The notes under the pieces: model-generated | Told to the model about the DNA's origin: nothing | What the model saw: only the letters and a program-made list of their open reading frames with translations | Database searches by the model: none | Shown here: positions 2,794 through 24,554 of the stretch, in pieces | Position numbering within the stretch: position 1 is the stretch's first letter | Layout: each line of letters opens with the position of its first letter | Virus record (IMG/VR): IMGVR_UViG_3300029288_004137 | Location: 64,001-128,000 of that record | Reading direction: 5' to 3' (one strand) | Source of the DNA: a virus | Lineage: Duplodnaviria; Caudoviricetes | DNA length: 64,000 bases | Program-made: the position numbers and the translations under genes

Positions 2794-2806
2794 GTGTTTT
2801 TTTTAG

Positions 2807-2891: not shown

Positions 2892-2962
2892 CAACGCTTC
2901 ATAAACCAATCATAACACACTTGACTTCAAAAGTCAAGAAAAAAATTCTTCAATCAAATCAG

Positions 2963-3034: not shown

Positions 3035-3041
3035 AACATAG

Positions 3042-3126
3042 TGCTGAAAGAGGGATTTGAACCCTCACGGTTTATACAACCGAGGGATTTTGAATCCCTT
3101 GTGTCTCCCATTTCCACCATAACAGC
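3042..3126 (-). tRNA. tRNA-Leu(CAA)
   Basis: Long variable arm, loop TTCAAAA; two acceptor mismatches. Confidence 0.85.
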
Positions 3127-3138
3127 AGTAAAATATAG

Positions 3139-3221
3139 TGCTGAAGGAGGGATTCGAACCCTCATGTTTTATAAACGAAGGATTCTAAATCCTTTGTGTA
3201 TACCAATTCCACCACGATAGC
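3139..3221 (-). tRNA. tRNA-Leu(TAG), copy with mispaired acceptor
   Basis: Loop TTTAGAA; acceptor GCTATCG/CTTCAGC has three mismatches. Confidence 0.8.
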
Positions 3222-3281
3222 ATCGAAATATGGTGCTGAAGGAGGGATTCGAACCCTCATGACCTATGGTCGAGAGATTTT

Positions 3282-3980: not shown

Positions 3981-4021
3981 AAGTCTCTTGCGTCTACCAT
4001 TCCGCCACAACAGCATTACAG

Positions 4022-4104
4022 TGCTATTGGAGGGACTTGAACCCCCACGATCTAAGATCAAAGGATTCTAAATCCTTTGTGTCTCCCATTTCCACCACAA
4101 TAGC
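4022..4104 (-). tRNA. tRNA-Leu(TAG)
   Basis: Perfect acceptor GCTATTG/CAATAGC, loop TTTAGAA. Confidence 0.92.
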
Positions 4105-9404: not shown

Positions 9405-10397
9405 TTTAGCATACCACAGAAATATAATTTTGTCAAGCGCAAAATATTTCAATTTTCTTTATTGATTGCTTTCTTTTTGTTTTTCAAGTCTTTGTGAATA
9501 TTCTACTAATTCTTTTTCTGTCATTAATTCAAATTGATATCCATTATCTTTTGCATATTGTTTATATGCTTCAACTTTATCTCGTTCTTTTGAAAATTCT
9601 TTTAATCTTCCTTGTGATTTTATTTCTACAAGTTTAATTATACCATCTTTCATTGTTATTAACAAATCTGGGACTGTATAACAGTCTATGCCTTTATATA
9701 CAAATGGTATTGTTATACTTTCTGATAAGAAAGATTCAACATCAGGATCTTTTTCAATCAATTGAAGATATAAAAGTTCATAAGATGAACGATAATAAAC
9801 TTCTTTAATACATTTCTTAGATTTAAAATAACCTTTTTTAAAACAGTTTTTGCCGGAAAACATTCCAGGATTTTCCTGCATTTTTTTACACATAACAAGA
9901 GATAGTTTTGACTTTGTTTCTGGAGTGTGATGACGTTGAGGTACTCTATTCCCAGATAAAATATCAAAACGATACACTTCAATTCGTTTTATTATTTTTT
10001 CTTTGTTTTTTAATCGATATTCATTTTGATATTCATTTTGATATTCATTTATTTTTTCTTTGTTTTTTAATCGATATGCTTTCTTTTGTTCTTTGTTTTT
10101 TTCATACCATTCTTTTTGATATTCTTTCTTTTGTTCTTTGTTTTTTTCATACCATTCTTTTTGATATTCTTTCCTTTTTTCTTTTATTTCTTCTTTGTTC
10201 TTTTGATAATATGCTTTCTTTTTTTCTTTGTTCTTTTGATAATATGCTTTATTATATGCTTTCTTTTTTTGTTTTTTTATTTCTTTTTCAGAAAGAGATT
10301 CAACATTATCATTCGACATTGCTTTTCCTTTCGATTTTTAATTCTACATATTTAGCATACCACAGAAATATAATTTTGTCAAGCGCAAAATATTTCA
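9405..10397. repeat. 47-bp direct repeats (9405-9451, 10351-10397), each containing a promoter, flanking an endonuclease gene
   Basis: tttagcataccacagaaatataattttgtcaagcgcaaaatatttca identical at both sites. Confidence 0.9.
9459..10319 (-). CDS. Putative homing endonuclease, TnsA-like PD-(D/E)xK domain
   Basis: K/E/Y helical repeats, NUMOD3-like HTPETKSKLS, YRSSYE...PDLL...VEIK. Confidence 0.75.
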   Translation of the reverse strand: MSNDNVESLSEKEIKKQKKKAYNKAYYQKNKEKKKAYYQKNKEEIKEKRKEYQKEWYEKNKEQKKEYQKEWYEKNKEQKKAYRLKNKEKINEYQNEYQNEYRLKNKEKIIKRIEVYRFDILSGNRVPQRHHTPETKSKLSLVMCKKMQENPGMFSGKNCFKKGYFKSKKCIKEVYYRSSYELLYLQLIEKDPDVESFLSESITIPFVYKGIDCYTVPDLLITMKDGIIKLVEIKSQGRLKEFSKERDKVEAYKQYAKDNGYQFELMTEKELVEYSQRLEKQKESNQ

Positions 10398-10428
10398 GTT
10401 TCTTTGATTTTCTTAATAAAAAAAGCAC

Positions 10429-10457
10429 TTGACAAAAAAAAATCTTTATGGTATGAT
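10429..10457 (+). promoter_or_regulatory. sigma70 promoter, divergent from 10351-10397
   Basis: TTGACA-17-TATGAT with extended -10 TG. Confidence 0.85.
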
Positions 10458-10587
10458 ACGAATAGTATTAAAAATAGAGAGGAAACAATGAAAGTAGAAT
10501 TTCAAATCATAATAATAATACTTATAGTGTTTTTTATGAATCTTATTAATAATAATGAACAATAACAATTATTAAAGGAAAATATAA

Positions 10588-11595
10588 ATGAAATTTTCAC
10601 ATTTTTCTGATATTGAAAACTCTTATAACCTTAAATTTGTTGAAAAAATTGATAAGTCTGGAGTATGGTGCGTTACTGAAAAGATTCACGGAGCTAATGC
10701 TTCTCTTTGGTATTCCTCTGAGAATGATGAATTCCGTGTAGGAAAAAGATCATCTTTTATTGATGAAAGTAATTTCTTTGGTATCAATAAGTTTTCTAAT
10801 ACTTCTCTTAAAGAGATTACTATTAATCTTTTTAACCATATTAAAAACAATTTTAATTCTGAGATTAAAGATCTTGTTATCTATGGAGAATGGTTCGGCG
10901 GATATTATAATTGTGATGGAGTATCTGTAAAAGGATCAAGAGTACAAACGGGCGTATCTTATTCACCTAATAACCATTTTTATGCTTTCTATATGAAAAT
11001 TAATGATGTTCCTGTTTCAAGAAAAGATTTCTCTGAAATCTTTAAGGATTTTGATAATAAGAATAATATATTCTTTGATTCTAAAATCCTTTTTAAAGGG
11101 ACATTTAATGAGTGCATGGAATATCCTAATGATCAGAATAGTTTTATTCCTGATATGTTTAATTTGCCTAAACTACCAAAGAATATAATGGAAGGTGTGG
11201 TTATAGAACCATATGATACGATTAAATTTACTCCCAATAATGAAAGAGTTGTTCTAAAGAATAAGAATAATCTTTTTAATGAGAAGAAAAATAGGACAGG
11301 TAAAACTTATAAAGATACTATTCTCAGTGAAAATGCAATTAGTTATTTAGAGAATATTGATTGTTATATAACAGAACAAAGAGTTGAAAATCTTTATTCA
11401 AAATTGGGTGAAGAAATGTGCTTTAAGAATTTTTCTAGTATTCTTAAAGAGTATGTCGAAGATGTTTTTAAAGATTCTTCGAAAGAAATAAATGATAATG
11501 ATTTTGAACTTAGTAGTCTTGATCAAGAAAATGTTCTTCATGAAGTAAAAAATAAATCATCAAATCTTATTAGAAATTTCTTAAAAACGATTTAA
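10588..11595 (+). CDS. RNA ligase 2 family
   Basis: EKIHGAN (motif I), YGEWFGG, EGVV, LKNKN. Confidence 0.9.
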   Translation: MKFSHFSDIENSYNLKFVEKIDKSGVWCVTEKIHGANASLWYSSENDEFRVGKRSSFIDESNFFGINKFSNTSLKEITINLFNHIKNNFNSEIKDLVIYGEWFGGYYNCDGVSVKGSRVQTGVSYSPNNHFYAFYMKINDVPVSRKDFSEIFKDFDNKNNIFFDSKILFKGTFNECMEYPNDQNSFIPDMFNLPKLPKNIMEGVVIEPYDTIKFTPNNERVVLKNKNNLFNEKKNRTGKTYKDTILSENAISYLENIDCYITEQRVENLYSKLGEEMCFKNFSSILKEYVEDVFKDSSKEINDNDFELSSLDQENVLHEVKNKSSNLIRNFLKTI

Positions 11596-11686
11596 CATCT
11601 TGAATTATTAAGATAAATTTATCTTGATAATTCAAGTTTATTGTGATATTATATATCTATAAAATGTTTAATTTTGGAACAAATAT

Positions 11687-12397
11687 ATGGATCTCTATGA
11701 AACAGTTAGAATTGGCAATTTTCAACAAGTTAAATATTTTATTGAAAATAGCACTGATAATCATGAGATAAATGTAAAGGTATTATTACATTTAGCAACA
11801 GTAAATGGCCATCTTGATATCGTCAAATATCTTATTGAACGATATCAAGATATTGATATTTATGCTAATAATGATATTGCTTTACATCTTGCAGCACAAA
11901 ATAACCATTTTGATATTATTAAATATTTCGTTGAAAAAAAAGTAAATGCTAATACTTTAAATGGTTCTATTTTAGCATATGCAGTACAATATAATTGTAT
12001 GCATATGATCATATATTTAATTGAAAAAGGTGCTAATATTCATGCTTTAAATGAAATTGCTTTAAAAGCAGCAGTAACATTTAATCATTTTGATATTGTT
12101 AAGTATCTTATTGAACATGGTGCTGATATTCATATTGAAAATGATTATGTTTTAAGACTTGCCGTAAGAAAAGGTTTGATAGATATTGTTAAATACCTCA
12201 TTAAATGTGGTGCAGATATACGTGCTGATAATAATCGTGCTTTACGATGGGGACTTAAATACCAAATAAAGTATAATAACAAATTTAATATTGTCAAATA
12301 TTTAATTTCTTGTTATAATAAAGAAGAATTAAAAGAATTGTTTTTTAAATTTGATGATCTTTATATAAAGTATTTAATTTTGGAGCAAAGTATATGA
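11687..12397 (+). CDS. Ankyrin-repeat protein
   Basis: About six ANK repeats plus conserved tail. Confidence 0.92.
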   Translation: MDLYETVRIGNFQQVKYFIENSTDNHEINVKVLLHLATVNGHLDIVKYLIERYQDIDIYANNDIALHLAAQNNHFDIIKYFVEKKVNANTLNGSILAYAVQYNCMHMIIYLIEKGANIHALNEIALKAAVTFNHFDIVKYLIEHGADIHIENDYVLRLAVRKGLIDIVKYLIKCGADIRADNNRALRWGLKYQIKYNNKFNIVKYLISCYNKEELKELFFKFDDLYIKYLILEQSI

Positions 12398-12633
12398 ATA
12401 TCTTTGATGCAATAGAAGAAAACAATATTCAGTCTGTTAAAGAATGTATTAAAAGTAGTGCTGATATTCATGCTCATAATGCTTTAAGATGGGCAATAGA
12501 ATTAAATCGTTTTGAAATTATTAAGTATTTAATTTCTTTATATACCTTTTTAGAGTTGAAAATATTGTTTTTTAAAACTAAGGATCTTTATATAAAGTAT
12601 CTAATTTTAGAGCAAGTATATGAATCTTCTTGA
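12394..12633 (+). CDS. Minimal ankyrin protein
   Basis: One to two repeats plus conserved tail. Confidence 0.75.
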   Translation: MNIFDAIEENNIQSVKECIKSSADIHAHNALRWAIELNRFEIIKYLISLYTFLELKILFFKTKDLYIKYLILEQVYESS

Positions 12634-13232
12634 TGAAAGGAAAAATAATGTTTGAAAATGATGAAGATTATGATGCTTTAAAAGAATTCTCATATTATCT
12701 TTATGAAAATAGAGAAAATTGTTCTATTCTTTTTAACATAATTAATACTTATAATGAAAGTCTTTTTAAGAAAAGCAAGAACTTTGAAAACTTTTCAAAG
12801 TCATCATTTATTTGTAAATCTATCAAAACGCTTTTTCCTAAACTTGATTATGTTGATAAAAATGGACTAGATTTCATTTATGACAATAGAATTTTAATTG
12901 AACTAAAAACAAGAAAAGAGATGTTTCAAAAAAAGAAAACAAATCCCATTATTATAAAGAATCTAATTAAAAATCTAAATGAAACAAAAACATTTTCTGT
13001 TCTTTGGATGATTCAAACAGATAAACCGTATAAAATGGGATTAACTACATACACATCTGCAAAAAAATTTAAAAAGTTCTGTTATTCTCGGACTGAGTGT
13101 CAAATTCCTTTTGAATATATCCAATTTATTGAAATTCAAAACGATATTAAACATCTTGAAATTAATATTCAAAAAGAACAAGATGAATTTGAAAACAATT
13201 TAATCAATAAACTGATAAATAGGTTGAAATGA
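12630..13232 (+). CDS. Putative type II restriction endonuclease
   Basis: GLDF...IELKT PD-(D/E)xK-like motif; overlaps the MTase start. Confidence 0.55.
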   Translation: MMKGKIMFENDEDYDALKEFSYYLYENRENCSILFNIINTYNESLFKKSKNFENFSKSSFICKSIKTLFPKLDYVDKNGLDFIYDNRILIELKTRKEMFQKKKTNPIIIKNLIKNLNETKTFSVLWMIQTDKPYKMGLTTYTSAKKFKKFCYSRTECQIPFEYIQFIEIQNDIKHLEINIQKEQDEFENNLINKLINRLK

Positions 13233-14107
13233 ATAAACCAATATGGGCCTTGACTCCTCTTCGATATATAGGAGGAAAAAGTAAGCTTATAAAAAATATG
13301 TATCAATATTTTCCAAAAGATTTTTCTGAATTCAGAGAACCTTTTGTTGGAGGTGGATCTATATTTCTATATTTAAAACAATTATTTCCTGACAGAAAAT
13401 ATTGGATAAACGATATAAATCAAAATCTCTTTTCTTTTTGGATTATTCTTCAAAATTATGATTCAATGCTAAAACTACAAAAAGATCTTTTAAAAATAAA
13501 AGAAGATCTCATGCAAAAGTCTATTGAAGAAAGAAAAGAATTAAATATAAAAATGAAAGATACTTTATATGGTATAGATTCTGAGAATACAAAAAAATTA
13601 GTTCTTTCATATGAAAGAGCAATTGCTTATTATTTCTGCAATAAAACATCTTTCTCAGGATTAGAACAAGGTACTTATTCAGATCAAGCTTTTTATAAGA
13701 ACTTTACAGTATCAAATATAAATAAATTTAATACATATAATAAACTATTAAAAAATGTAGAAATAACAAATATAGATTATAGTCAATTACTTAATGATTC
13801 AATTAAAGATTATGATGAAAATGTTTTCTTTTATTTTGATCCGCCTTATGAATTAAATAAGAAATCATCAAATACTCTTTATGGTAAGGATGGAATACTT
13901 CATAAGTCTTTTGATCATCAAAGATTCTTTTCACTTATTAAAACAATTAATAAAGGAAAATTCTGTATATCATATAACAGTGATTCTTATATAAAAGAAA
14001 GATATAAAGATTATAATCAAATTGAATTAGATTTTCAATATGTTTCTAATTGTGGAAATAAGGGAAAATCAAAAAAAACTAAAGAATTGTTGATCTTTAA
14101 TTATTAA
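13229..14107 (+). CDS. Dam-family N6-adenine DNA methyltransferase
   Basis: PLRYIGGKS, EPFVGGGS, DPPY. Confidence 0.92.
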   Translation: MNKPIWALTPLRYIGGKSKLIKNMYQYFPKDFSEFREPFVGGGSIFLYLKQLFPDRKYWINDINQNLFSFWIILQNYDSMLKLQKDLLKIKEDLMQKSIEERKELNIKMKDTLYGIDSENTKKLVLSYERAIAYYFCNKTSFSGLEQGTYSDQAFYKNFTVSNINKFNTYNKLLKNVEITNIDYSQLLNDSIKDYDENVFFYFDPPYELNKKSSNTLYGKDGILHKSFDHQRFFSLIKTINKGKFCISYNSDSYIKERYKDYNQIELDFQYVSNCGNKGKSKKTKELLIFNY

Positions 14108-14121
14108 AGAAAAAATTAAAC

Positions 14122-14150
14122 TTGACTTTTAAAATTAAATATGATATTCT
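14122..14150 (+). promoter_or_regulatory. sigma70 promoter heading the paralog array
   Basis: TTGACT-17-TATTCT with TG extension. Confidence 0.8.
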
Positions 14151-14170
14151 TTTATTAAAGAAGAAATTAA

Positions 14171-14419
14171 ATGATATTAACTGGCAAAATGTATAAATAT
14201 TTCTACAATAAAAATTACTATTATCTTTATCTTGAAATAGATAGAAATTGGTTTATAAACAACATTCTACCTAATTTACCACAATGTTATAAATGTTTTA
14301 AATGTAATACTGAAAAAGATTGTCTTTTTTTATATAATTGCAAACATAAAATTTTTTGTTGTGTTCCTTCTTATCAAGAAGAATTTAAATTAATAGAAAA
14401 ATTGGATAACATTAAATGA
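14171..14419 (+). CDS. Array family A protein
   Basis: MILTGK..LEIDxNWF..CxxC..CLFLY..C. Confidence 0.85.
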   Translation: MILTGKMYKYFYNKNYYYLYLEIDRNWFINNILPNLPQCYKCFKCNTEKDCLFLYNCKHKIFCCVPSYQEEFKLIEKLDNIK

Positions 14420-14655
14420 TATTAACTGGAAAAATTTATACTTATAAAAATGAAAACAAAACCAATCTTTATCTTGAAATAAATAAAAATTGGTTTTTAA
14501 AAAACCTATTAAAAGATCTTTTTTTTAAATGTCGTGACTGCATAAAAAAGAATAAAGATAATTGTCTTTTTTTGTATTTTTGTAAAAGTAAAAGATTTGA
14601 TTGTTATCCTAAAAATCCAAAATTTAAATTAATAGAAAATAATATTGTTGGATAA
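14416..14655 (+). CDS. Array family A protein
   Basis: Family A motif set. Confidence 0.85.
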   Translation: MILTGKIYTYKNENKTNLYLEINKNWFLKNLLKDLFFKCRDCIKKNKDNCLFLYFCKSKRFDCYPKNPKFKLIENNIVG

Positions 14656-14662
14656 CATTTAA

Positions 14663-14941
14663 ATGATATTAACTGGAAAAATGTATACTTATAAACCAAA
14701 AATATATATTTATAAATCAAATGAAAATGAAAATAATGTTTATTTTCATCTTGAAATAGATAAAAATTGGTTTATAACCAATATTTTGTCTAATATACCA
14801 CAATGTTCTAATTGTAATAATATAAATAAAAATAGTTGTCTTTTTTTATATTCTTGTAAATTTAAAAATTTTTTTTGTGTTCCTCTTGTTTCTCTTTCTC
14901 AAGAAAATTTTAAATTAATAAAAAAATTAGGTAGTAATTAA
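14663..14941 (+). CDS. Array family A protein
   Basis: Family A motif set. Confidence 0.85.
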   Translation: MILTGKMYTYKPKIYIYKSNENENNVYFHLEIDKNWFITNILSNIPQCSNCNNINKNSCLFLYSCKFKNFFCVPLVSLSQENFKLIKKLGSN

Positions 14942-15244
14942 ATGATATTAACTGGCAGAATGTATATATACCATTCAAATCTTTATAATTATTACTCTTC
15001 TTTTCCTACTGATGATATGTATGTTTCTCTTTATCTTGAAATAGATAAAAATTGGTTTATAAAAAATATATTGAATTTGAATTATGTTCGTACTCATTTT
15101 GTGTGTAGTGACTGTACTACAAAAAGAAACAAAAGTAACTGCTTTTTTTTATATAGAATTAAATCTAAAAAATTTGTTTGTTATCCTGAAGATACAAAAA
15201 TCAAATTTGAATTAATGAAAAATACTATTTTGGATAACATTTAA
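14942..15244 (+). CDS. Array family A protein
   Basis: Family A motif set. Confidence 0.85.
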   Translation: MILTGRMYIYHSNLYNYYSSFPTDDMYVSLYLEIDKNWFIKNILNLNYVRTHFVCSDCTTKRNKSNCFFLYRIKSKKFVCYPEDTKIKFELMKNTILDNI

Positions 15245-15481
15245 ATGATATTAACTGGTAAAATGTATACTTTTCAAGATAACTATCTTTATCTTGAAAT
15301 AGATAAAAATTGGTTTATCAAAAACGTATTAAAAGATCTTTATCTGTGTGGTGACTGCATAAAAAAGAATAAAGATAATTGTCTTTTTTTATATTCTTGT
15401 AGATTTAAATATTTTCATTGTACTCAACTTTCCTTCTGCTATGAAATAAAATTAATAGAAAAATTGGATAACATTAAATGA
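15245..15481 (+). CDS. Array family A protein
   Basis: Family A motif set. Confidence 0.85.
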   Translation: MILTGKMYTFQDNYLYLEIDKNWFIKNVLKDLYLCGDCIKKNKDNCLFLYSCRFKYFHCTQLSFCYEIKLIEKLDNIK

Positions 15482-15726
15482 TATTAACTGGAAAAATGTA
15501 TGTTTATAAACAAAGTGAAAATAATGTTTATTTTCATCTTGAAATAGATAAAAATTGGTTTATAACCAATATTTTGTCTAATATACCACAATGTTTTAAT
15601 TGTAATAATGTAAATAAAAACAGTTGTCTTTTTTTATATTCTTGCTTATATAAAGATTTTCATTGTACTAACGTTCCTTCTATTATGGAATATAAATTAA
15701 TAGAAAAATTGGATAACACTAAATGA
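15478..15726 (+). CDS. Array family A protein
   Basis: Family A motif set. Confidence 0.85.
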   Translation: MILTGKMYVYKQSENNVYFHLEIDKNWFITNILSNIPQCFNCNNVNKNSCLFLYSCLYKDFHCTNVPSIMEYKLIEKLDNTK

Positions 15727-16067
15727 TATTAACTGGAAAAATGTATGCTGCTGAGTATCCAATTTTATTCTCTCTTATTAAAGATGTGCATTTATGTATA
15801 TGCCTTGAAATAGATACAGATTGGTTTAGAAAAAATTTATTAAATAAAAATCCAGCATGTCAATTTAATAAATGTGAACATTGTAGTATTTATAATTTAG
15901 GCAAAAAATGTTTGTTTCTTTATAATATACAACATAAAAGATTTTATTGGTATTATCCTAAACATTTTAATTGCTTTGAGAAATATTATTATAATAGTGA
16001 AGACATAAAATCTAATTTATCTGATCTTCTTCTTCTTCCTACTGTTTATATAAAGGAAATTAAATAA
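15723..16067 (+). CDS. Array family A protein (divergent, longer)
   Basis: Family A motif set. Confidence 0.8.
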   Translation: MILTGKMYAAEYPILFSLIKDVHLCICLEIDTDWFRKNLLNKNPACQFNKCEHCSIYNLGKKCLFLYNIQHKRFYWYYPKHFNCFEKYYYNSEDIKSNLSDLLLLPTVYIKEIK

Positions 16068-16336
16068 TGATATTAACTGGCAAAATGTATAAAAAATGTT
16101 TCTACGATAATACAAACCATATTCCTCTTTATTTTGAAATAGATAAAGATTGGTTTTATAAAAATGCATTACCAAATATTATTGCATGTTATAATTGCGA
16201 TGAAGATTGCAATAAATATAAAGAAAAAGAAAAAGATTGTCTTTTTTTGTATTCTTTTGATTCTAAACGTTTTAATTGTGTTCACTATCCTTCTACTCTG
16301 CAATTTAAATTAATAGAAAAATTGGATAACATTTAA
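16067..16336 (+). CDS. Array family A protein
   Basis: Family A motif set. Confidence 0.85.
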   Translation: MILTGKMYKKCFYDNTNHIPLYFEIDKDWFYKNALPNIIACYNCDEDCNKYKEKEKDCLFLYSFDSKRFNCVHYPSTLQFKLIEKLDNI

Positions 16337-16588
16337 ATGATATTAACTGGTAAAATGTACGCTTATAAACAAAGTAAAAATTATGTTTATTTTTGTCTTG
16401 AAATAGATAAAAATTGGTTTATTACAAATATTTTACCTGATTTACCACGTCATTGTTTTGATTGTTTTAATACAGATAAAAATAATTGTCTTTTTTTGTA
16501 TTTTTGTAGTTATAAAAAATTTAATTGTTTTCAAAAAAAAAGTAATTGTTTTAAAGAAATGGTTTGTTCTAAAAAGAGTAAAAATTAA
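16337..16588 (+). CDS. Array family A protein
   Basis: Family A motif set. Confidence 0.85.
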   Translation: MILTGKMYAYKQSKNYVYFCLEIDKNWFITNILPDLPRHCFDCFNTDKNNCLFLYFCSYKKFNCFQKKSNCFKEMVCSKKSKN

Positions 16589-16828
16589 ATGGTATTAACT
16601 GGCAAAATATATACTTATAAACCAAGTGAAAATGATGTTTATTTCCATCTTGAAATAGATAAAAACTGGTTTATAAATAACATTTTGCCTAATTTATTAC
16701 TATGCTATAAATGTAATACTGAAAATAGTTGTCTTTTTTTATATAATTGTGAATTTAAAAGTTTTTATTGTGTTCCTCTTGTTTCTCAAGAAAAATTTAA
16801 ATTAATAGAAAATAATATTGTTGGATAA
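16589..16828 (+). CDS. Array family A protein
   Basis: Family A motif set. Confidence 0.85.
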   Translation: MVLTGKIYTYKPSENDVYFHLEIDKNWFINNILPNLLLCYKCNTENSCLFLYNCEFKSFYCVPLVSQEKFKLIENNIVG

Positions 16829-16835
16829 CATTTAA

Positions 16836-17084
16836 ATGATATTAACTGGCAAAATATACACTTATAAAAATGATAAAAATAATGTTTATTTCCATCTTGA
16901 AATAGATAAAAACTGGTTTATAAATAACATTTTGTCTAATATACCACAATGTTTTGATTGCAATAATGTAAATAAAAATAGTTGTCTTTTTTTATATTCT
17001 TGCTTATATAAAGAATTTCATTGTACTCACTTTCCTTCTACTATGGAATATAAATTAATAGAAAAATTGGATAACATTAAATGA
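16836..17084 (+). CDS. Array family A protein
   Basis: Family A motif set. Confidence 0.85.
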   Translation: MILTGKIYTYKNDKNNVYFHLEIDKNWFINNILSNIPQCFDCNNVNKNSCLFLYSCLYKEFHCTHFPSTMEYKLIEKLDNIK

Positions 17085-17308
17085 TATTAACTGGAAAAAT
17101 TTATACTTATAAAAATGAAAACAAAACCAATCTTTATCTTGAAATAGATAAAAATTGGTTTATAAATAATATTTTGCCTAATTTATTACTATGCTATAAA
17201 TGTAATACTGAAAATAATTGTCTTTTTTTATATAATTGCATGTTTAAAATTTTTTGTTGTGTTCCTCTTGTTTCTCAAGAAGAATTTAAATTAATAGAAA
17301 ACATATAA
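17081..17308 (+). CDS. Array family A protein
   Basis: Family A motif set. Confidence 0.85.
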   Translation: MILTGKIYTYKNENKTNLYLEIDKNWFINNILPNLLLCYKCNTENNCLFLYNCMFKIFCCVPLVSQEEFKLIENI

Positions 17309-17324
17309 TATTGGATAAAATCTA

Positions 17325-17624
17325 ATGTCTATTATAGATAAAATACATAAAAAAATAATGATAAAATTTAAAAAAGGAAATCTATTTTTTGATAACTTTT
17401 TTAAAAGATTCTTTATAGTAGTAGATATCTGTGATAAAAAACACAAATTATCTTATCGACATTGTAAAAAATGTAATAAAAACTATGCTCTTCCAAATGC
17501 TAAATGTTATTTATCGTATTATTTTAATAAAAATGATTCATATTTTCGTTGTAATACTGAACTCTATCTTTTAAAAACTTTTAAAAAAAATAAATTAAAA
17601 AATGAAAACAATTCTCACAGGTAA
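17325..17624 (+). CDS. Array family C protein
   Basis: FKKGNLFFD..FIVVDIC..CxxC..YL.Y..C. Confidence 0.8.
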   Translation: MSIIDKIHKKIMIKFKKGNLFFDNFFKRFFIVVDICDKKHKLSYRHCKKCNKNYALPNAKCYLSYYFNKNDSYFRCNTELYLLKTFKKNKLKNENNSHR

Positions 17625-17853
17625 CATATATAAAGATTTTTTTGTTGTTCCACATCTTTATCTTGAAATAAATAAAAACTGGTTTATAAAAAATAAGTTA
17701 AATTTGGATAGGATTGGTATAGAAAATATATTTGATGAATATTGCGAAAATTGTAATGCCACTTTTAAAGGTGATTGTTTATTTTTATATGGTATTAAAT
17801 CTAAAACATTCTTTTGTGATAAAAAATCATTTTATGATAAAATTGGAGTATAA
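17602..17853 (+). CDS. Array family A protein (divergent)
   Basis: ILTGNIY..LEINKNWF..CxxC..CLFLY. Confidence 0.8.
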   Translation: MKTILTGNIYKDFFVVPHLYLEINKNWFIKNKLNLDRIGIENIFDEYCENCNATFKGDCLFLYGIKSKTFFCDKKSFYDKIGV

Positions 17854-17859
17854 AATTAA

Positions 17860-18114
17860 ATGATTCTTACAGGTAAAATGTATAAAAGCGAATCAAAATA
17901 TTTTGATTCATCAATATCAAAAATTTATCTTGAAATAGATAAAAATTGGTTTATGGATAATATTATAATTAAATATGAATATGCTACGTGTTTTAATTGT
18001 GTTCGACTTAATAATCAATGCTTATTTCTATATGATTTACAAGACAAGAAATTTTTATGTGAAAAACCACAACTTCAATATTTTTATAATGAAATAATAC
18101 AAAAAAATGATTAA
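17860..18114 (+). CDS. Array family A protein (divergent)
   Basis: Family A motif set. Confidence 0.8.
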   Translation: MILTGKMYKSESKYFDSSISKIYLEIDKNWFMDNIIIKYEYATCFNCVRLNNQCLFLYDLQDKKFLCEKPQLQYFYNEIIQKND

Positions 18115-18370
18115 TAAAAACAATTATAAATTAGAATATTATGAAAATCTTGGATTTGTTATAAATATAACAGATCAATATAAAGATGTTCCTACAAAAG
18201 AAATAAAAAAAATATGTGAAAATAGATTTTTTAATATGAAGCATCCAGATTATGGATCAATCTACCATTGCAGAGAATGTTATTTAGGAAATGGATTCTT
18301 ACTTGCCTATAGTTTTTTACTTGATAAAATAATATGTTTATGTGTTTTGATAAAACTGATGAAAGACTAG
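18107..18370 (+). CDS. Array family B protein
   Basis: KLEYYENLGF.I.ITDQYK..IC..C..C..YSF..C. Confidence 0.8.
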   Translation: MINKNNYKLEYYENLGFVINITDQYKDVPTKEIKKICENRFFNMKHPDYGSIYHCRECYLGNGFLLAYSFLLDKIICLCVLIKLMKD

Positions 18371-18376
18371 ATATAA

Positions 18377-18685
18377 ATGAATAACAATAAATTAGAATAT
18401 CATGAAAATCTTGGATTTTTCATAGATATAACAGATCAGTATAAAAATCTTCCAACAGAAAAAATAAAACAAATATGTGAAAATATGTATTGTACTGAAA
18501 ATACTCTCTATAAAAAATTTTCTGCCCCATATAAAAACAATATGCTTAACTATTTTTTTATATGTCAGCAAAATCAATGTTCTTTGGGAGATAAACATAA
18601 CAGACTTATTTATAGTTTTGATTTTAACAAAATCGTATGTATGCATTTACATTTAAAAACTTCTAAAATTACTTATATAAAATGA
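18377..18685 (+). CDS. Array family B protein
   Basis: Family B motif set. Confidence 0.8.
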   Translation: MNNNKLEYHENLGFFIDITDQYKNLPTEKIKQICENMYCTENTLYKKFSAPYKNNMLNYFFICQQNQCSLGDKHNRLIYSFDFNKIVCMHLHLKTSKITYIK

Positions 18686-18990
18686 ATAACAATAAATTAG
18701 AATATCACAAAAAATTTGGATTTTTTATAGATATAACAAATCAGTATAAAAATCTTCCAATAAAAAAAATAAAAAAAATATGTGAAAAAGAGTATTTTTC
18801 TGATTATAAACCCTGTATAACAGATTTTTCTGATTCACACGATATATTTAACTATTTTTTTGTTTGTATATGTCAAGAACAATGTTCCTTGGGAGATAAA
18901 TATAACAGACTTATTTATAGTTTTAATTTTAACAAAATCATATGTATACGTTTTGATAAAACTGACAAAGAATCAGATATAAATGAATAA
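18682..18990 (+). CDS. Array family B protein
   Basis: Family B motif set. Confidence 0.8.
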   Translation: MNNNKLEYHKKFGFFIDITNQYKNLPIKKIKKICEKEYFSDYKPCITDFSDSHDIFNYFFVCICQEQCSLGDKYNRLIYSFNFNKIICIRFDKTDKESDINE

Positions 18991-19273
18991 CAATAAATTA
19001 GAATATTATGAAAATCTTGGATTTGTTATAGATATAACAGATCAATATAAAGATCTTTCATTAAAAAAAATAAAAAGAATATGTGATAATCAGTATTATA
19101 CTAACTCAATCAGTTTATCAGGTTTTTTCTTTAAATGTTGTGATACATATTGTTCTTTGGATAATGGACATAATAAACTTGTTTATAGTTTTGATTTTGG
19201 CAAAATCATATGTGTAAATTTATTTGTTTTGCATTCAGAAATTTTTGGATTTGATAAATATGAAAAAAATTAA
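18983..19273 (+). CDS. Array family B protein
   Basis: Family B motif set. Confidence 0.8.
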   Translation: MNNNKLEYYENLGFVIDITDQYKDLSLKKIKRICDNQYYTNSISLSGFFFKCCDTYCSLDNGHNKLVYSFDFGKIICVNLFVLHSEIFGFDKYEKN

Positions 19274-19568
19274 CAATAAATTAGAATATTATAATCATCT
19301 AGGTTTTTTTATAGATATAACAGATCAATATAAAAATCTTCCAATAGAAGAATTAAACAAAATATGTAAAAAACAATATTTACACGATATTATGATACGT
19401 ACATATGATTCTAAATATACTTTTTCTTTTTGCCATTGCATAGCATGTTGTTTAGTTTCTAAGAAATATAAACTTGGTTATAGTTTTACTCTTAAAGATT
19501 TTATATGCCTTACATTAGAAGAATCTTTAAATACAAATATTAAAAAAGGAAACAAGAATGAATTTTAA
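19260..19568 (+). CDS. Array family B protein (start adjusted to MKKINNKLEY)
   Basis: Family B motif set. Confidence 0.75.
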   Translation: MKKINNKLEYYNHLGFFIDITDQYKNLPIEELNKICKKQYLHDIMIRTYDSKYTFSFCHCIACCLVSKKYKLGYSFTLKDFICLTLEESLNTNIKKGNKNEF

Positions 19569-19797
19569 TTTTAAACTTAAAAAAGGAGAATTGTATTTCG
19601 ATCATAATGTTATGGAATTCTGTATCATTCTTGATGTTTGTACTAAAAATGAACATTCAACTTCTTATTTATATTGCAAACATTGTGGTTATAATTTGTA
19701 CCCATGTAAAAATGAATTTTTTTATTTAGTATATTATTTTAGAAAAAAAATTCATTTTATTCACACTATACATGTCTTTCTAAGGAATATATTATAA
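19558..19797 (+). CDS. Array family C protein
   Basis: LKKGELYFD..ILDVCTK..CKHC. Confidence 0.75.
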   Translation: MNFNFKLKKGELYFDHNVMEFCIILDVCTKNEHSTSYLYCKHCGYNLYPCKNEFFYLVYYFRKKIHFIHTIHVFLRNIL

Positions 19798-19831
19798 ATA
19801 ATGAACTTTTTCAAAATAAGGGTAAAAATCA

Positions 19832-20062
19832 ATGAAAACAATAAAATTTAAAAAAGGTTCTTTACATTTTGATAAATTTTTTAAACATTTTTTTCTAATA
19901 ATAGATATTTGTACTCCTGATCATCCATTAACAAATAAATATCAATATTGTAAAAATTGTGATACTACTTATTTTCCTTCTTTTAAAGGGAAAAAATATT
20001 TAAGATATACTTTTATTAGAAAAAATTATGGTTGTGTTTGTGGTGGCGACAATGAATCTTAA
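19832..20062 (+). CDS. Array family C protein
   Basis: Family C motif set. Confidence 0.75.
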   Translation: MKTIKFKKGSLHFDKFFKHFFLIIDICTPDHPLTNKYQYCKNCDTTYFPSFKGKKYLRYTFIRKNYGCVCGGDNES

Positions 20063-20318
20063 AAAAGGAAATCTATATAAAGATGATTTAGGTTTTTTTA
20101 TAATAGTAGATGTTTGTACTAAAAATAAACGATTAAATTATAAACACTGTAAACATTGTGGTAATAATGGTATATATCCTAAACCAGCTTTTTTTAAAGA
20201 AAATGAAACAGTTTATTTAATTTATTCATTTTATAAAGATATATCATATTTTTGGTGTGATTCAGAACAAAATTTATTAACATTGGATCTTATAACAAAT
20301 GAAAACAATGAATCTTAA
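20052..20318 (+). CDS. Array family C protein (start adjusted to MNLKKG)
   Basis: Family C motif set. Confidence 0.75.
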   Translation: MNLKKGNLYKDDLGFFIIVDVCTKNKRLNYKHCKHCGNNGIYPKPAFFKENETVYLIYSFYKDISYFWCDSEQNLLTLDLITNENNES

Positions 20319-20574
20319 AAAAGGAGAATTGTATTTAGATGATTTAGGTTTTTTTATAATGGTAGATATTTGTACTAAAAATAAACCATTATATGAATTA
20401 TATAAACATTTACACTGTAAATATTGTTATCGAAGAAAAGATGATTCTTTTTATAAAGATATAACAATGTATTTGATATATTCTTTTAAAAAAAATATGT
20501 TAAATTCTCATTATTCTTGTATCACAAAAGGAGCAACAATTAATGTCAAAAACAATAGAAACAATAAATCTTAA
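20299..20574 (+). CDS. Array family C protein
   Basis: Family C motif set. Confidence 0.8.
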   Translation: MKTMNLKKGELYLDDLGFFIMVDICTKNKPLYELYKHLHCKYCYRRKDDSFYKDITMYLIYSFKKNMLNSHYSCITKGATINVKNNRNNKS

Positions 20575-20842
20575 AAAAGGAAATCTATATAAAGACGGTT
20601 TAGGTTTTTTTATAATAGTAGATATTTGTACTAAAGACAAACCATTAGATGAATCATATAAATATTTACACTGTAAAACCTGTTATCGAAAAAATAATTC
20701 TTTTTATGAAAATGTAACAATGTATTTGATATATTCTTTTAAGGAAAATATGTTAAATACTCATTATTCTTGTTCCTCAGAAGAATCAATAATAATGTCA
20801 TCTCTCTTTTATAAGAGAGTCTCTTTTATAAGAAAAAAATGA
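20543..20842 (+). CDS. Array family C protein
   Basis: Family C motif set; close paralog of the preceding gene. Confidence 0.8.
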   Translation: MSKTIETINLKKGNLYKDGLGFFIIVDICTKDKPLDESYKYLHCKTCYRKNNSFYENVTMYLIYSFKENMLNTHYSCSSEESIIMSSLFYKRVSFIRKK

Positions 20843-21090
20843 AAAATGAATTAGAATTAGGATTAAAATATAATCTAGCAGATGGATTTTATTTAATATT
20901 AAATAATTGTAGTTTTAATTTAAAAGAGAGACAATACAATATGAACAAATACAAATTTTGCAAGCATAAATGTAGATTTAACAAACTTTATAAAGAATAT
21001 CCTACTTGTTTTGAAGGTGGTGAATTTAATTTAATTTATGTTTTCAATGATAAACAATTATATTGTGTAAAAAGAGATATTTATTTTTAA
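20839..21090 (+). CDS. Array family C-like protein (divergent)
   Basis: GFYLILNNC..CKHKC..LIYVF..C. Confidence 0.65.
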   Translation: MKNELELGLKYNLADGFYLILNNCSFNLKERQYNMNKYKFCKHKCRFNKLYKEYPTCFEGGEFNLIYVFNDKQLYCVKRDIYF

Positions 21091-21854
21091 TTATAAATTC
21101 TTGAAAACAGATTCTTTGAAGATTTTAATAATTTTTTATTTGATATTTTTAAATGTAATAACTTTAAAATACTTTCATAATTCAAAGTTAATTTGATATA
21201 ATCACCAACATTTTTTGTTGTTCTATACGAACGATTTAAATGATCTGAAGATGATAAACCTTTCTTTGTTGTTTTTAAAGCACAATCATCTTCTTCTGGA
21301 ATAGTTCTTGAACCAAATGGATCATCAAAAAAACCATCAAAATTATGAGGTTTCTTATCATTTATATCATCAATCTTAGGTGGAAAAGATTCCCAAGAAG
21401 AATCTTTATTTATTGATAACCAAACATTTTCAGCTTCTTCTGTAGTGCTTTCTCTATCAGCACATATTCCTGCTTCTTTATTACCATCGTTTTGACATAT
21501 CCATGCTGATGCTAATCCATAAAGAAGTTTTCCAATTCCTTGCCCTTTATATTGATCTCTCAAGAAAGACATATGAATTTGATAAGCACCATAACAAAGT
21601 CCGCCTGTATTTAATTTCTTGCTTTCTTGACATTTTTGCATAGAAATAGCACCAATAATCGCCTTAACCAATATTTCTTCATTTAAATCTTTTGAATAGT
21701 TTTTTAATATTTTATTATCAAAAAGAATAAGACGAATCATATGAAAATTATTACTCATTTCTTGTGCTACTGCCAAAGAAATATTAAGAAAATTTTCAGT
21801 ATCAATTGTACTTTCTTTTAAAAATTCTTTCCAATTATTAACAAATGTATTCAT
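21087..21854 (-). CDS. GNAT-like acetyltransferase paralog
   Basis: YKGQGIGKLLY acetyl-CoA loop, ADR.STT..AE.VW. Confidence 0.7.
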   Translation of the reverse strand: MNTFVNNWKEFLKESTIDTENFLNISLAVAQEMSNNFHMIRLILFDNKILKNYSKDLNEEILVKAIIGAISMQKCQESKKLNTGGLCYGAYQIHMSFLRDQYKGQGIGKLLYGLASAWICQNDGNKEAGICADRESTTEEAENVWLSINKDSSWESFPPKIDDINDKKPHNFDGFFDDPFGSRTIPEEDDCALKTTKKGLSSSDHLNRSYRTTKNVGDYIKLTLNYESILKLLHLKISNKKLLKSSKNLFSRIYN

Positions 21855-21857
21855 GAT

Positions 21858-22775
21858 CTATTGATTATTTCTTCCATAAAGTCTAGTGAAAAAAGAATTA
21901 AAGATTCTTTCAAAGAATTTTGATATAAATGGTAAATCATTTGTCATCATAAAAAATTTACCTACATGATTATGATTTTCTATAACTTTATCAAAATTCT
22001 TTGTATATTCATTATAATTTTTTACAAACTCATATGTATTAAAAGAACGGTTTAAATGATCACTATTATCTAAAGATAATTTTGTTTTCTTTAAACGGCA
22101 ATTATCTTCTTTTGGAGTTGTTCTTTCGTTTTTTATATTATCAAAAGTACCATCAAAATAATCTTTCTTTTTGTTATTTGGTTGTTCTTCTTTATCTGTT
22201 TTTTCTTGATTTGGTTCTTCATCTGGTATTTGATTTTCCCAAGAAGGATTATTATTTATCGATAACCAAACTCTTTCTGCTGCTGGTGATGTCGTTGCTC
22301 TATCAGCGCATATTCCAACATTAGGATTATTATCATTCATATAAGCATGTGATGCTGCTAAACCATATAATAGTTTTCCATACCCTTTGCCTTGATATTC
22401 TTCACTTACTGCTGACATTTTAACTTCATAAGAACCAAAACATTCTCCATTCCCATTCTCTTCTGTTTTAATTATAGAAATTACACCAACAATACAATCA
22501 CGAAATCCAGATTTAAATGAATTAATAAAATTATTTTCCTTCCCATCATCATAAAATAATTGTTTTATTTCTAAATTTGAATTGTTTAATTCTTTCTTAT
22601 AGTGAGAACTTAAATAAGTTAAAGTTTCACTTAGTTTTGTTAAGTCTAAAAGAAATATATTATCTCCATCTCCATTAAATCCTTCAATAACAAACACACC
22701 AAAAAACAATGAATTAACGTTTTTTTCTTCTTTTAATAATGTTTTTCTTTTAAAATTTATCCATTTTTTATTCAT
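21858..22775 (-). CDS. GNAT-like acetyltransferase paralog
   Basis: SAVSEEYQGKGYGKLLY. Confidence 0.75.
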   Translation of the reverse strand: MNKKWINFKRKTLLKEEKNVNSLFFGVFVIEGFNGDGDNIFLLDLTKLSETLTYLSSHYKKELNNSNLEIKQLFYDDGKENNFINSFKSGFRDCIVGVISIIKTEENGNGECFGSYEVKMSAVSEEYQGKGYGKLLYGLAASHAYMNDNNPNVGICADRATTSPAAERVWLSINNNPSWENQIPDEEPNQEKTDKEEQPNNKKKDYFDGTFDNIKNERTTPKEDNCRLKKTKLSLDNSDHLNRSFNTYEFVKNYNEYTKNFDKVIENHNHVGKFFMMTNDLPFISKFFERIFNSFFTRLYGRNNQ

Positions 22776-23851
22776 GATGTGTGATGAATACCTCGAAAAA
22801 ATGTTTGAAGTTTATTAGTAATTAAATCTTGATCTCCTCCGAAAATAACATCAATAAAAGGTTTAATTCTTTTTAAATTAATTATAACCTCTCTGAATTC
22901 ATCTGTTTTATTAGATGAAGCAACAATATTTAAATGTTTATCATCATCAAAATATTTACTTTCCTTTCTTTTGCAATCATCATCATATGGATCTGTTTTA
23001 GGATCATAAACATCATCAAATTCTCCGATATAAGGTTCTATTTCAGAAATTTGATTAGACCAATTCCCATCTTCTTTTTCTGTTTCATTTTTAATACTTT
23101 TCCACACTCTTTCTGCTGCTGCTGACACACTACGCCTATCACAAGTAATACCTTGATTTGAAGATATTGAAGCCATTGCATAAAGAAATTTTCCATATCC
23201 TTTACCTTGATATTTTTCATCTATCGCTGAATATGCTACTTCACTTGCATCATAACAATCACCATCACTTCTAGGTTCAATATAATTTATAAATCCTATT
23301 AAAAAATTTTCAATTTCTGTTATATGGTATAATTCATAATTTAAATCTCTAATTTGTTTTTTATTAACAAACCATTCTTTTTCTTCATCATCTTCTTCTT
23401 CATCATCTTCATCATCTTCATCGTATTCTTCATCTTCCATTTCAGTGCCATTTACGTATAAATTATAGAAGTCTCCTTCATTTCCATTTAATATAGCATC
23501 CATCCATTCCATTACTTCTTCATTTGTCACTTCATCTATCATTTCTTCTATATGCTTTTCAGAATCAGAATGATGAAATGAAAAAGAAAATTGATTTTTT
23601 GGATCATATAATGCTATTTTTTTATTTCTGTTTCTTGCTGCAATATATTTTTTATATGTTTGAATAATCTTTTCTTCAAATGTCTTTATATTTATCAATA
23701 ATACAAAAACACCATCTGAATAATGATTAAATATATATAATCCTAAATCTTTTTTTGATATTGATTCTGAAGATCTTTCTTCATTTAATTTAAATTTATT
23801 CCATTGTTCATTCTTAATCATCATAATATATATCCCAAAAGAAATTATCAA
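22772..23851 (-). CDS. GNAT-like acetyltransferase paralog with acidic insert
   Basis: SAIDEKYQGKGYGKFLY. Confidence 0.75.
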   Translation of the reverse strand: MIISFGIYIMMIKNEQWNKFKLNEERSSESISKKDLGLYIFNHYSDGVFVLLINIKTFEEKIIQTYKKYIAARNRNKKIALYDPKNQFSFSFHHSDSEKHIEEMIDEVTNEEVMEWMDAILNGNEGDFYNLYVNGTEMEDEEYDEDDEDDEEEDDEEKEWFVNKKQIRDLNYELYHITEIENFLIGFINYIEPRSDGDCYDASEVAYSAIDEKYQGKGYGKFLYAMASISSNQGITCDRRSVSAAAERVWKSIKNETEKEDGNWSNQISEIEPYIGEFDDVYDPKTDPYDDDCKRKESKYFDDDKHLNIVASSNKTDEFREVIINLKRIKPFIDVIFGGDQDLITNKLQTFFRGIHHTS

Positions 23852-24554
23852 TCATAGTTATTAATCCTTTTTTTATTGAATCTTTTATTCCAAGTTTAAC
23901 ATAATTGCTTCTTAATTCATTAAATTCATTAACAAATTTATCTGAGGAGTATACTTGATTCAAATGTTCTGGGTTTAATTTATCTGAATAAAGTCTACTA
24001 TATTTTTTTATTTTACAATCATCTTTTTCGGGTCTAGTTTTAGGAGCATTTATATCATCAAACTTTCCGATATAAAACCCTTTTTTGGGTATTACAGGTT
24101 CCCAATCTTCGTTATGATCAATACTATCCCATACTCTTTCAGCTTTTTCCGATGTAGTAGATCTATCCGCCGTAATTCCTGTAGCACATTTACTTATACT
24201 TATATATGCTGCTAACAATCCATATATTAATTTTCCATATCCTTTACCTTGATATTTTTCATCTACCGCTGAATTTGATACTTCCATACTATCAAAACAT
24301 CTTCCATCTTCATAAGCAGTAGTTTTAGAAGCAATAATCATTCCAATTATAAAATCCACATGTTTTTCTTCATCAAAATCATTATCAGTAAAATTTTGTG
24401 CTGCTTTTATAAATTTTTTTAATTTTATAGTATTTAATAAAGATATTGTTACTTCTCCATCATTATCTTTATAAAAATATAAACACAAATTGTTTAAATT
24501 ACCAAAAGATTCATTTATAACAAATTTATTCCAACATTTTAAAAACCTTGTCAT
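23814..24554 (-). CDS. GNAT-like acetyltransferase paralog
   Basis: SAVDEKYQGKGYGKLIY. Confidence 0.75.
   Translation of the reverse strand: MTRFLKCWNKFVINESFGNLNNLCLYFYKDNDGEVTISLLNTIKLKKFIKAAQNFTDNDFDEEKHVDFIIGMIIASKTTAYEDGRCFDSMEVSNSAVDEKYQGKGYGKLIYGLLAAYISISKCATGITADRSTTSEKAERVWDSIDHNEDWEPVIPKKGFYIGKFDDINAPKTRPEKDDCKIKKYSRLYSDKLNPEHLNQVYSSDKFVNEFNELRSNYVKLGIKDSIKKGLITMIDNFFWDIYYDD

Follow-up and report, generated by a model that had tools for sequence, protein, structure and literature searches.

A tandem array of 26 small cysteine-rich genes in a landfill-leachate jumbo phage, probably shaped by duplication and gene conversion

A block of 26 small cysteine-rich genes lies head to tail in the genome of a phage from landfill leachate, and segments of the encoded proteins recur in different combinations from gene to gene. 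The question raised by this locus is whether it is a dedicated machine for protein diversification or a gene family reshaped by general recombination. The array was analysed in a window of 64,000 nucleotides (nt), the whole stretch of DNA examined, which comprises bases 64,001–128,000 of a single virus contig of 209,974 bp (IMG/VR record IMGVR_UViG_3300029288_004137); positions below are those of the window unless marked as genome positions. The contig has a guanine-plus-cytosine (GC) content of 27.7% and a CheckV completeness estimate of 100%, giving a jumbo phage genome of about 210 kb. The evidence favours, with a probability of roughly 0.7, a lineage-specific orphan multigene family that evolves by tandem duplication and gene conversion, and not a dedicated diversification machine.

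The array consists of 26 co-directional open reading frames (ORFs) of 75–114 amino acids (aa) on the + strand, spanning 14171–21090 (about 7 kb). The intergenic gaps range from −50 to +34 nt, and at six junctions the stop and start codons overlap as ATGA. Clustering by blastp and profile hidden Markov models (HMMs) agreed on three families, A, B and C, with 14, 5 and 7 members respectively, which reproduced the gene count and the division given in the first-pass annotation of the sequence, and neither method found a member of these families elsewhere in the 209,974-bp genome. The GC content of the array region is 20%, all 26 frames are intact, and the locus takes up 3.3% of the genome. Because stop codons are frequent at 20% GC, 26 consecutive open frames are not a product of chance; these long frames, together with a ratio of nonsynonymous to synonymous divergence (omega) of about 0.1 on the scaffold codons, make it certain that the array is coding.

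The codon alignment of family A revealed patchy identity, and the pairwise DNA identity among the copies ranged from 44 to 91%. The shared segments that had been listed in the first-pass annotation were all present: IYTYKNENKTNLYLEI is common to the genes that start at 14416 and 17081 (g14416 and g17081; other genes are named likewise), NNILPNLLLCYKCNTEN to g16589 and g17081, DCIKKNKDNCLFLY to g14416 and g15245, FKLIENNIVG to g14416 and g16589, and NILSNIPQC to g14663, g15478 and g16836. The gene A2 (14416–14655, 79 aa) is a mosaic, with an N-terminal part matching g17081, a middle matching g15245 and a tail matching g16589. Likewise A12 (17081–17308, 75 aa) combines the N-terminal part of g14416 with the middle of g16589, A10 (16589–16828, 79 aa) has the middle of g17081 and the tail of g14416, and A5 (15245–15481, 78 aa) has its middle in common with g14416.

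Recombination was assessed by the pairwise homoplasy index (PHI) and by permutation of shared tracts, and the call of recombination rests on these two tests. The PHI of family A was 0.517, compared to 0.622 ± 0.0135 in permuted alignments (p < 5e-4), while a GENECONV-like permutation gave at least seven A pairs at p ≤ 2e-4, for which the Bonferroni limit is 5.5e-4, with runs of 30–54 concordant polymorphic sites; both support exchange within family A. The high-identity DNA tracts are 50–225 nt long, have 92–98% identity against a background of about 50–70%, and often cross gene junctions. The tract 14381–14501, which contains the tail of A1 and the N-terminal part of A2, corresponds to 17046–17166 (97.5%), and 14619–14695 corresponds to 16792–16868 (96%). 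Further pairs are 14728–14856 with 15516–15644 (97.7% over 129 nt, g14663 and g15478), 15449–15575 with 16307–16434 (92%, across a junction), 15518–15742 with 16876–17100 (94% over 225 nt, across a gene junction) and 16647–16812 with 17136–17301 (94%). Since the tracts lie at six different offsets (489, 788, 858, 1358, 2173 and 2665 nt), they point to several independent events and not to one segmental duplication.

Trees calculated for separate segments placed g14416 with g17081 for the N-terminal segment, with g15245 for the middle and with g16589 for the C-terminal segment, and the three trees rejected each other with log-likelihood differences of 47–72. Random codon partitions also rejected each other, in 85% of cases, with a mean difference of 26 and a maximum of 67, so that only the excess over this control counts towards the incongruence. 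Approximately unbiased tests of the segment trees (p ≤ 1.3e-4) were set aside as decisive evidence for the same reason. By the alignment-based tests family A is a true recombinational mosaic, and the proposal that paralogs have exchanged segments by recombination, with tract ends in conserved blocks, is supported for this family. The tails of g14416 and g16589 that end in NNIVG (14626–14662 and 16799–16835) contain 8 extra nt, inserted before the conserved junction string, with the result that the junction is read in another frame, an early TAA stop is reached and a 7-nt spacer is left. The retention of the junction string in these two frame-shifted genes is attributed to recent shared ancestry of the tracts.

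Four constant DNA blocks had been described in the first-pass annotation as separating the variable segments of family A; these blocks exist, but are exact in only 7–8 of the 14 copies. Proportions of synonymous (pS) and nonsynonymous (pN) differences were counted by the Nei-Gojobori method in the 11 A genes that are closer to each other, with 34 codons classed as constant and 49 as variable. The constant codons gave a pS of 0.364 and a pN of 0.048 (omega about 0.1), and the variable codons a pS of 0.348 and a pN of 0.424, which corresponds to an omega of about 1.3 that is biased upward by the choice of codons for their variability. As the constant blocks have diverged at synonymous sites to the same degree as the variable codons, and their omega is about 0.1, the blocks are not DNA-level signals. 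They are conserved as protein, namely as the strands and cysteines of the predicted fold, and not as DNA. At a pS of about 0.35 the A paralogs are also old.

A model of family A was obtained with AlphaFold2 from the alignment of 14 sequences, with a predicted local distance difference test score (pLDDT) of 84.7 and a predicted template modelling score of 0.74. The model contains a long β-hairpin (residues 3–23), two helices (25–31 and 37–44), the second of which carries C39-x2-C42, and three further strands (51–56, 61–66 and 72–75). The constant blocks map to β1 (MILTGK.Y), β2/α1 (LEIDKNWF), the CxxC motif, β3 (CLFLY), β4 (K.F.C) and β5 (KLI), while the variable segments form the tip of the hairpin, which varies in length by up to 14 residues, the insert around the CxxC motif and the turns. 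The model of family C is weaker (pLDDT 67) and has the same order of hairpin, CxxC insert and hairpin. In family A every copy has the cysteines C39, C42 and C51, and at least 90% have C64; in family C the invariant cysteines are C30, C41 and C44, with a late cysteine in most copies, and in family B they are C34, C68 and C88, with another cysteine 2–4 residues before C68. A joint alignment of the 26 proteins gave four collinear motifs: G/N-x-hydrophobic followed by Y, a hydrophobic strand ending in D/E-I, CxxC, and hydrophobic-L-x-Y followed by the late cysteine.

The fold matches of the confident A model were weak, with Foldseek E-values of 0.2 or higher, Atlas TM-scores of at most 0.57 and VIA Z-scores of at most 5.0, the best being a PWWP domain (2daq, root-mean-square deviation 3.1 Å over 68 residues). 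The best structural match for family C had a Z-score of 4.2 (CarD, 9e7v_M). These matches are all small barrels of the SH3, Tudor, PWWP, KOW or CarD type, and many of the chains are common to the lists for A and C. From the models and the collinear motifs we infer that A, B and C form one superfamily of small barrels with four cysteines (Cys4), that zinc binding is probable and that the scaffold is most likely a Zn-stabilised barrel resembling SH3 or Tudor domains. The Zn-stabilised binder proposed in the first-pass annotation fits the four invariant or near-invariant cysteines on a small scaffold, with Zn binding itself deduced from that arrangement.

Scans of A, B and C representatives against Pfam, PHROGs and NCBIfam gave no significant family, and profiles of the three families, searched against 5.8 billion clustered proteins, returned only proteins of this genome. 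An exhaustive HMMER search with the A profile against 1.84 billion representatives gave nothing beyond the family itself except one spurious match, P0014 (E 2.5e-4), which was rejected as a low-complexity repeat protein. No match was obtained by blastn and tblastn against 50,697 phage records, nor by two metagenome scans, one protein-based and one using the 24-nt LEIDKNWF block. A viral contig retrieved in the IMG/VR scan (L001) was discarded, as it contained a chance match to EIDRNWFIK within a 625-aa baseplate-like protein. Profile matches to PDB sequences were treated as noise (E ≥ 0.11; for example a sirtuin-2 Zn module at E about 0.7), and scores of at most 0.82 in a feature search of the ESM Atlas were at chance level. 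Among the databases searched, the three families thus appear to occur in this genome only. This isolation may partly be a sampling effect, the phage itself having no sampled relatives: a search for a close relative found none, the best UvsX match in IMG/VR being 28% identical (26–28% among UvsX relatives), and its GroEL is at most 39% identical to those of cultured phages. The GNAT-like flank of the array, used as a search query, retrieved no relatives, and a locus found with the Dam methylase was rejected because it belongs to an unrelated phage of higher GC content that has no array. As the searches with Dam, the GNAT-like flank and UvsX gave none, the analysis had no related phage with which to compare the locus.

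The stability of the locus was judged from independent short contigs, 99.8–100% identical to the window, from the Joint Genome Institute (JGI) metagenome 3300037067 and the run SRR8542065. The JGI sample was taken from leachate well LW3 of a Southern Ontario landfill (bioRxiv 10.1101/2024.05.30.596742). About 11 kb of contigs from these two datasets were 99.9–100% identical to the window, and contained four single-nucleotide polymorphisms (SNPs) in flank or array and no alternative mosaics. The stretches 10368–14411, 14705–16329, 17808–19074 and 19001–23216 were matched at 100% identity, and 19475–20949 had two mismatches to an independent contig. A4 (14942–15244, 100 aa), A5 and the whole of the tract shared by g14663 and g15478 lie in contig L005, which matches the window at 100% identity, so that a second assembly confirms this mosaic. 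Contig L003 is 100% identical across A14 (17860–18114, 84 aa), a divergent copy, and includes B1 (18107–18370, 87 aa), and C2 (19558–19797, 79 aa) is covered by contigs L006 and L007. Contigs ended inside the array at 14411 (L010), at 14705 and 16329 (L005) and at 17808 (L003). In the sampled populations the array is no more variable than its flank, and there is no hypervariability.

One contig, L002 (sample LW3, 1–2268), follows the window from 12371 to 14481 and then continues with 17147–17303, which skips 2,665 bp and 11 family A genes; A12 is also present in this contig. The switch lies in a 96-nt perfect repeat, 14386–14481 (+ strand) being identical to 17051–17146, and the flank differs from the window by two SNPs, at 12379 and 12652. 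L002 is possibly a natural deletion by unequal crossover, or else a chimeric assembly path.

Enzymes that might act on the array were sought across the whole 209,974-bp genome. No match to reverse transcriptase (PF00078) was found, although the positive controls matched, and there was none to tyrosine (PF00589) or serine (PF00239) recombinases, which extends to the entire genome the earlier statement that no reverse transcriptase or integrase is nearby. A UvsX/RecA-type recombinase is encoded at 62597–63730 on the − strand (phrog_97, E 1.8e-58); the phage RecA named as the likely driver in the first-pass annotation is therefore present, and its link to the array is presumed. The phage is prone to tandem duplication in general, as about 85 of its 279 ORFs (approximately 30%) belong to lineage-specific, mostly tandem paralog families, including some 30 ankyrin genes, the three array families, five GNAT-like genes and several triplets.

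The array proteins would share one scaffold, consisting of an N-terminal β-hairpin, an insert that bears the CxxC motif and a C-terminal β-hairpin ending in a cysteine, and the head-to-tail genes are probably translationally coupled. The array would have grown by tandem duplication via unequal homologous recombination, in which crossover between misaligned tandem copies adds or removes copies and leaves chimeras at the point of crossover. In family A the copies are probably still being patched, either by gene conversion or through unequal crossovers among them. Such exchanges would start and end in the blocks common to all copies, which are those encoding the structural core, with the outcome that the segments coding for loops are reassorted, and also the tails together with the N-terminus of the following gene. 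The process would be general recombination through the UvsX pathway on an evolutionary time scale, with no program that runs in each generation.

Several observations weigh against this account of an old family patched by general recombination. The PHI-type signal is limited to family A, being borderline in B (p = 0.05) and missing in C (p = 0.42), and pairwise comparison of the family profiles (A with B, A with C and B with C) by hhalign gave no significant homology (E 0.004–0.15). By the tool's own grading the fold scores lie below the level that indicates more than a common arrangement, and for none of the families was a homolog with a known role found. The upward bias of the loop omega means that positive selection is not demonstrated; relaxed and diversifying selection are both compatible with the counts, and the loops may simply be unconstrained. 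Assembled contigs could miss rare variants and ongoing exchange, and no independent collinear contig covers 14412–14704 and 16330–17807, which contain several of the key mosaic genes.

An array that is a neutral or selfish by-product, in which a duplication-prone genome carries a dispensable 'ORFanage' with drifting loops, incidental recombination and no adaptive repertoire, is unlikely. Intact frames in all 26 genes at 20% GC, a scaffold omega of about 0.1 and three to four invariant cysteines per family indicate that selection for a folded product has been kept on every copy, and devoting 3.3% of a packaged genome to the array carries a real cost. The same explanation would accommodate a loop omega near 1 and the roughly 30% of ORFs in tandem paralog families. 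It would also suit the candidate variant that lacks 11 genes, similar to a spontaneous loss of ORFan regions described in a cyanophage (PMC4503421).

It is similarly doubtful that the array is a living repertoire, in which UvsX-driven exchange keeps changing the copy number and the loop combinations in natural populations, with L002 as one such event, under selection by variants of host defences or targets. Such a repertoire, if real, would be the phage counterpart of contingency or variant-receptor gene families, on a previously unknown scaffold that tolerates loop swapping.

Still less probable is the dedicated system of the first-pass annotation, in which constant DNA blocks act as recombination signals, three segments are continually recombined and a combinatorial library of binders is kept at the level of the population. 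The segment mosaicism is real and significant and the tracts end at conserved blocks, as such a system would require, but the synonymous divergence of the blocks is the same as elsewhere (pS 0.364 against 0.348), with no conservation of DNA beyond the constraint on the protein. Exchange is not bound to a defined cassette, the tracts crossing gene boundaries at six offsets, and the genome encodes no reverse transcriptase, invertase or integrase. The junction sequence that is kept despite the frame-changing 8-nt insertion, and the different junction in the second-sample contig L002, which may indicate flux in copy number, could both be taken in its favour. The copies are nevertheless old, the 11 kb of independent contigs yielded four SNPs and no other mosaics, and unrelated families across the genome are equally tandem-duplicated, while B and C carry no such signal.

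That the mosaics are chimeric paths through a repeat-rich short-read metagenome assembly is very improbable: contigs do break in the array, L002 takes another path through the 96-nt repeat and two intervals lack collinear support, yet a path switch needs a long identical tract that is already shared amid divergent sequence, the 129-nt tract of g14663 and g15478 lies entirely within L005, and two other assemblies exactly reproduce 10368–14411, 14705–16329 and 17808–23216.

No signal peptide or hydrophobic segment is evident in the array proteins, which are therefore probably intracellular. The accessory genes nearby (Rnl1, Rnl2, tRNAs, Dam, ankyrin and GNAT-like proteins), which are of types associated with host interaction and counter-defence, and TG-extended sigma-70-like sites at the head of the island provide the context for a function. 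From this setting we infer, as a tentative proposal, that the array proteins are early-expressed intracellular binders of host factors. It is conceivable, and put forward with the same reserve, that they act as a panel that neutralises or redirects host proteins during takeover or counter-defence, with the loops setting the specificity.

Among described phage processes the nearest, by analogy, would be the shuffling mediated by promoter early stem-loops (PeSLs) in the hyperplastic regions of T4-type phages (Arbiol et al., 2010, PMC2839356; Comeau et al., 2014, PMC4122927). Both involve small non-essential ORFan genes clustered in plastic regions of a large phage, and short repeated conserved sequences that serve as substrates for homologous recombination, with modules being inserted, deleted and swapped. 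PeSL shuffling releases a circle when two neighbouring repeats recombine, and the 2,665-bp deletion suggested by L002 would have such a circle as its reciprocal product. PeSLs, however, are intergenic cassettes of promoter and stem-loop beside unrelated genes, whereas the gaps in the array are at most 34 nt and contain no + strand terminator hairpins; the repeats of the array are the conserved coding cores of paralogs, and exchange between them gives chimeric proteins and not a reshuffling of whole genes.

The array also resembles viral genomic accordions, in which counter-defence genes are amplified in tandem by recombination and of which poxvirus K3L is one example. Others are the amplification of T4 tifA against toxIN (PMC9391042) and the SegB-promoted amplification in T6 (PMC13096335). 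In both, tandem copies are gained by recombination in a large double-stranded DNA virus and are later free to diverge, and the genomic context of the array fits counter-defence. Accordions are recent, near-identical, unstable amplifications that appear under selection, whereas the copies of the array are old (pS about 0.35), distinct and stable in two datasets, and no homing endonuclease was identified at the array.

A bacterial parallel is the locus of tandem leucine-rich repeat (LRR) proteins in Flavobacterium psychrophilum, which is reshaped by extensive intra-locus recombination (Altae-Tran et al., 2020, PMC10392669). It contains up to about 20 tandem genes for small binders, with hypervariable positions on a conserved scaffold and no mobilome genes. 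The LRR proteins are secreted, surface-anchored solenoids, while the array encodes a predicted orphan Cys4 small barrel with no signal peptide. The LRR locus varies between strains, contains gene fragments and has junctions with 1–5 bp of microhomology, formed by illegitimate recombination; in the array all genes are intact, exchange is homologous via blocks of 15–100 nt, and the one candidate deletion is the sole strain difference seen so far.

Diversity-generating retroelements (DGRs) and invertase shufflons likewise diversify a binding protein encoded by a phage. The array genome differs from a DGR in having no reverse transcriptase, no pair of template and variable repeats and no silent template, and the A codon alignment contains indels and substitutions at all four bases across 14 expressed-type copies, with no adenine-specific change. 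It differs from a shufflon in having no recombinase of the Rci, Cin or Gin type, and the 26 genes and the repeats found are all direct and on the + strand, no search having been aimed specifically at inverted repeats. Host-takeover clusters, such as SPO1 gp37–60 and the early regions of T4 and T5, are made up of small early genes whose products bind host proteins. Like the array, they belong to large lytic phages and are long series of tiny genes that point the same way and follow promoters of host type. Their genes are mostly unrelated, compared to 26 paralogs here, and early timing is suggested for the array by weak promoter matches.

A tandem family of binder genes reshaped by recombination within the locus is thus a known phenomenon, as in the LRR locus and the viral accordions, and no new mechanism of diversification is revealed by the array. 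The new elements are the protein family, its extent of 26 genes or 3.3% of the genome, and its clear anatomy of scaffold and loops: a comparison of the paralogs is enough to tell the conserved core from the loops that can be swapped. The locus is a clean natural case of general recombination making chimeric proteins in a phage genome with no dedicated enzyme. The compact new fold family, of about 80 aa and confidently predicted from 14 sequences, tolerates loop exchange and is of interest as a binder scaffold. The small unknown genes of large phages are the main reservoir of undiscovered takeover and counter-defence proteins, and the array supplies a well-delimited group of candidates that could be screened for anti-defence activity when a host has been identified.

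The remaining genes are arranged as follows. A1 (14171–14419, 82 aa; HMM E 1e-34) opens the array, and A3 (14663–14941, 92 aa) has a longer β1–β2 hairpin tip. A6 (15478–15726, 82 aa) has an exchange tract across its gene junction, and is followed by A7 (15723–16067, 114 aa), a divergent copy with a long C-terminal extension in which the fourth cysteine is replaced. A8 (16067–16336, 89 aa) takes part in the junction-crossing tract shared with 15449–15575; A9 (16337–16588, 83 aa) and A11 (16836–17084, 82 aa) were assigned by the family HMM, and A11 also takes part in an exchange tract. The first member of family C, C1 (17325–17624), lies inside the A block, with a degenerate A-type junction just before it (region 17290–17360). 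The other C genes have no counterpart of the first 11 codons of C1, and the ATG at 17358 may be the true start. A13 (17602–17853, 83 aa) is divergent (HMM E 1e-24).

Family B continues after B1 with B2 (18377–18685, 102 aa), B3 (18682–18990, 102 aa) and B4 (18983–19273, 96 aa), all four assigned by HMM. B5 (19260–19568) has a called product of 102 aa from the ATG at 19260, and a TTG at 19224 merely lengthens the ORF. The C genes C2, C3 (19832–20062, 76 aa), C5 (20299–20574, 91 aa) and C6 (20543–20842, 99 aa) were also recognised by HMM, and C4 (20052–20318) has a called product of 88 aa from the ATG at 20052. C7 (20839–21090, 83 aa; HMM E 7e-19) is the most divergent member of family C.

A single promoter had been placed before the array, and a candidate sigma-70-like site is indeed present at 14122–14150 on the + strand (TTGACT-17-TATTCT with TG), in the 63-nt gap before the first array gene; it matches only 9 of 12 consensus positions, and promoter-like sites are rarer around 14122 than in shuffled sequence. 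The + strand block to which the array belongs is also preceded by stronger TG-extended sigma-70-like sites, at 10429 and 12291. No terminator-like hairpins were found on the + strand between array genes in 14171–20800. The stop codon of C7 overlaps that of a convergent GNAT-like gene by 4 nt (21087–21090), which leaves no space for a terminator, and transcription of the array would read antisense into the GNAT-like genes.

The array is located in a + strand accessory island with Rnl2, ankyrin and Dam genes. The surrounding region contains a cluster of ten tRNAs (340–4104), an Rnl1-type RNA ligase (8146–9378, − strand), an Rnl2-type RNA ligase (10588–11595, + strand) and a Dam-class methylase (13229–14107, + strand), and this combination is typical of a phage countermeasure set against anticodon nucleases and restriction. 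The genome also encodes GroEL, a DnaE-type polymerase, ribonucleotide reductase and a DnaB helicase, besides the UvsX-type recombinase, the two RNA ligases and the tRNA cluster. Across the island (10001–22000) the GC skew becomes positive and the GC content drops to 20%, while elsewhere in the window, which is − strand there, the skew is negative and the GC content 24–34%.

The approximately 30 ankyrin-repeat genes lie mostly in one tandem array upstream of the window (genome 35.3–49 kb), with others in the window at 6210, 6688, 11687, 12394 and 46399–47235. Of the five paralogs with weak similarity to GNAT acetyltransferases, four are in tandem immediately after the array (21087–24554, − strand) and the fifth lies about 15.6 kb past the end of the window. 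Three more tandem paralogs, of about 115 aa, are found at 37788–38900 on the − strand.

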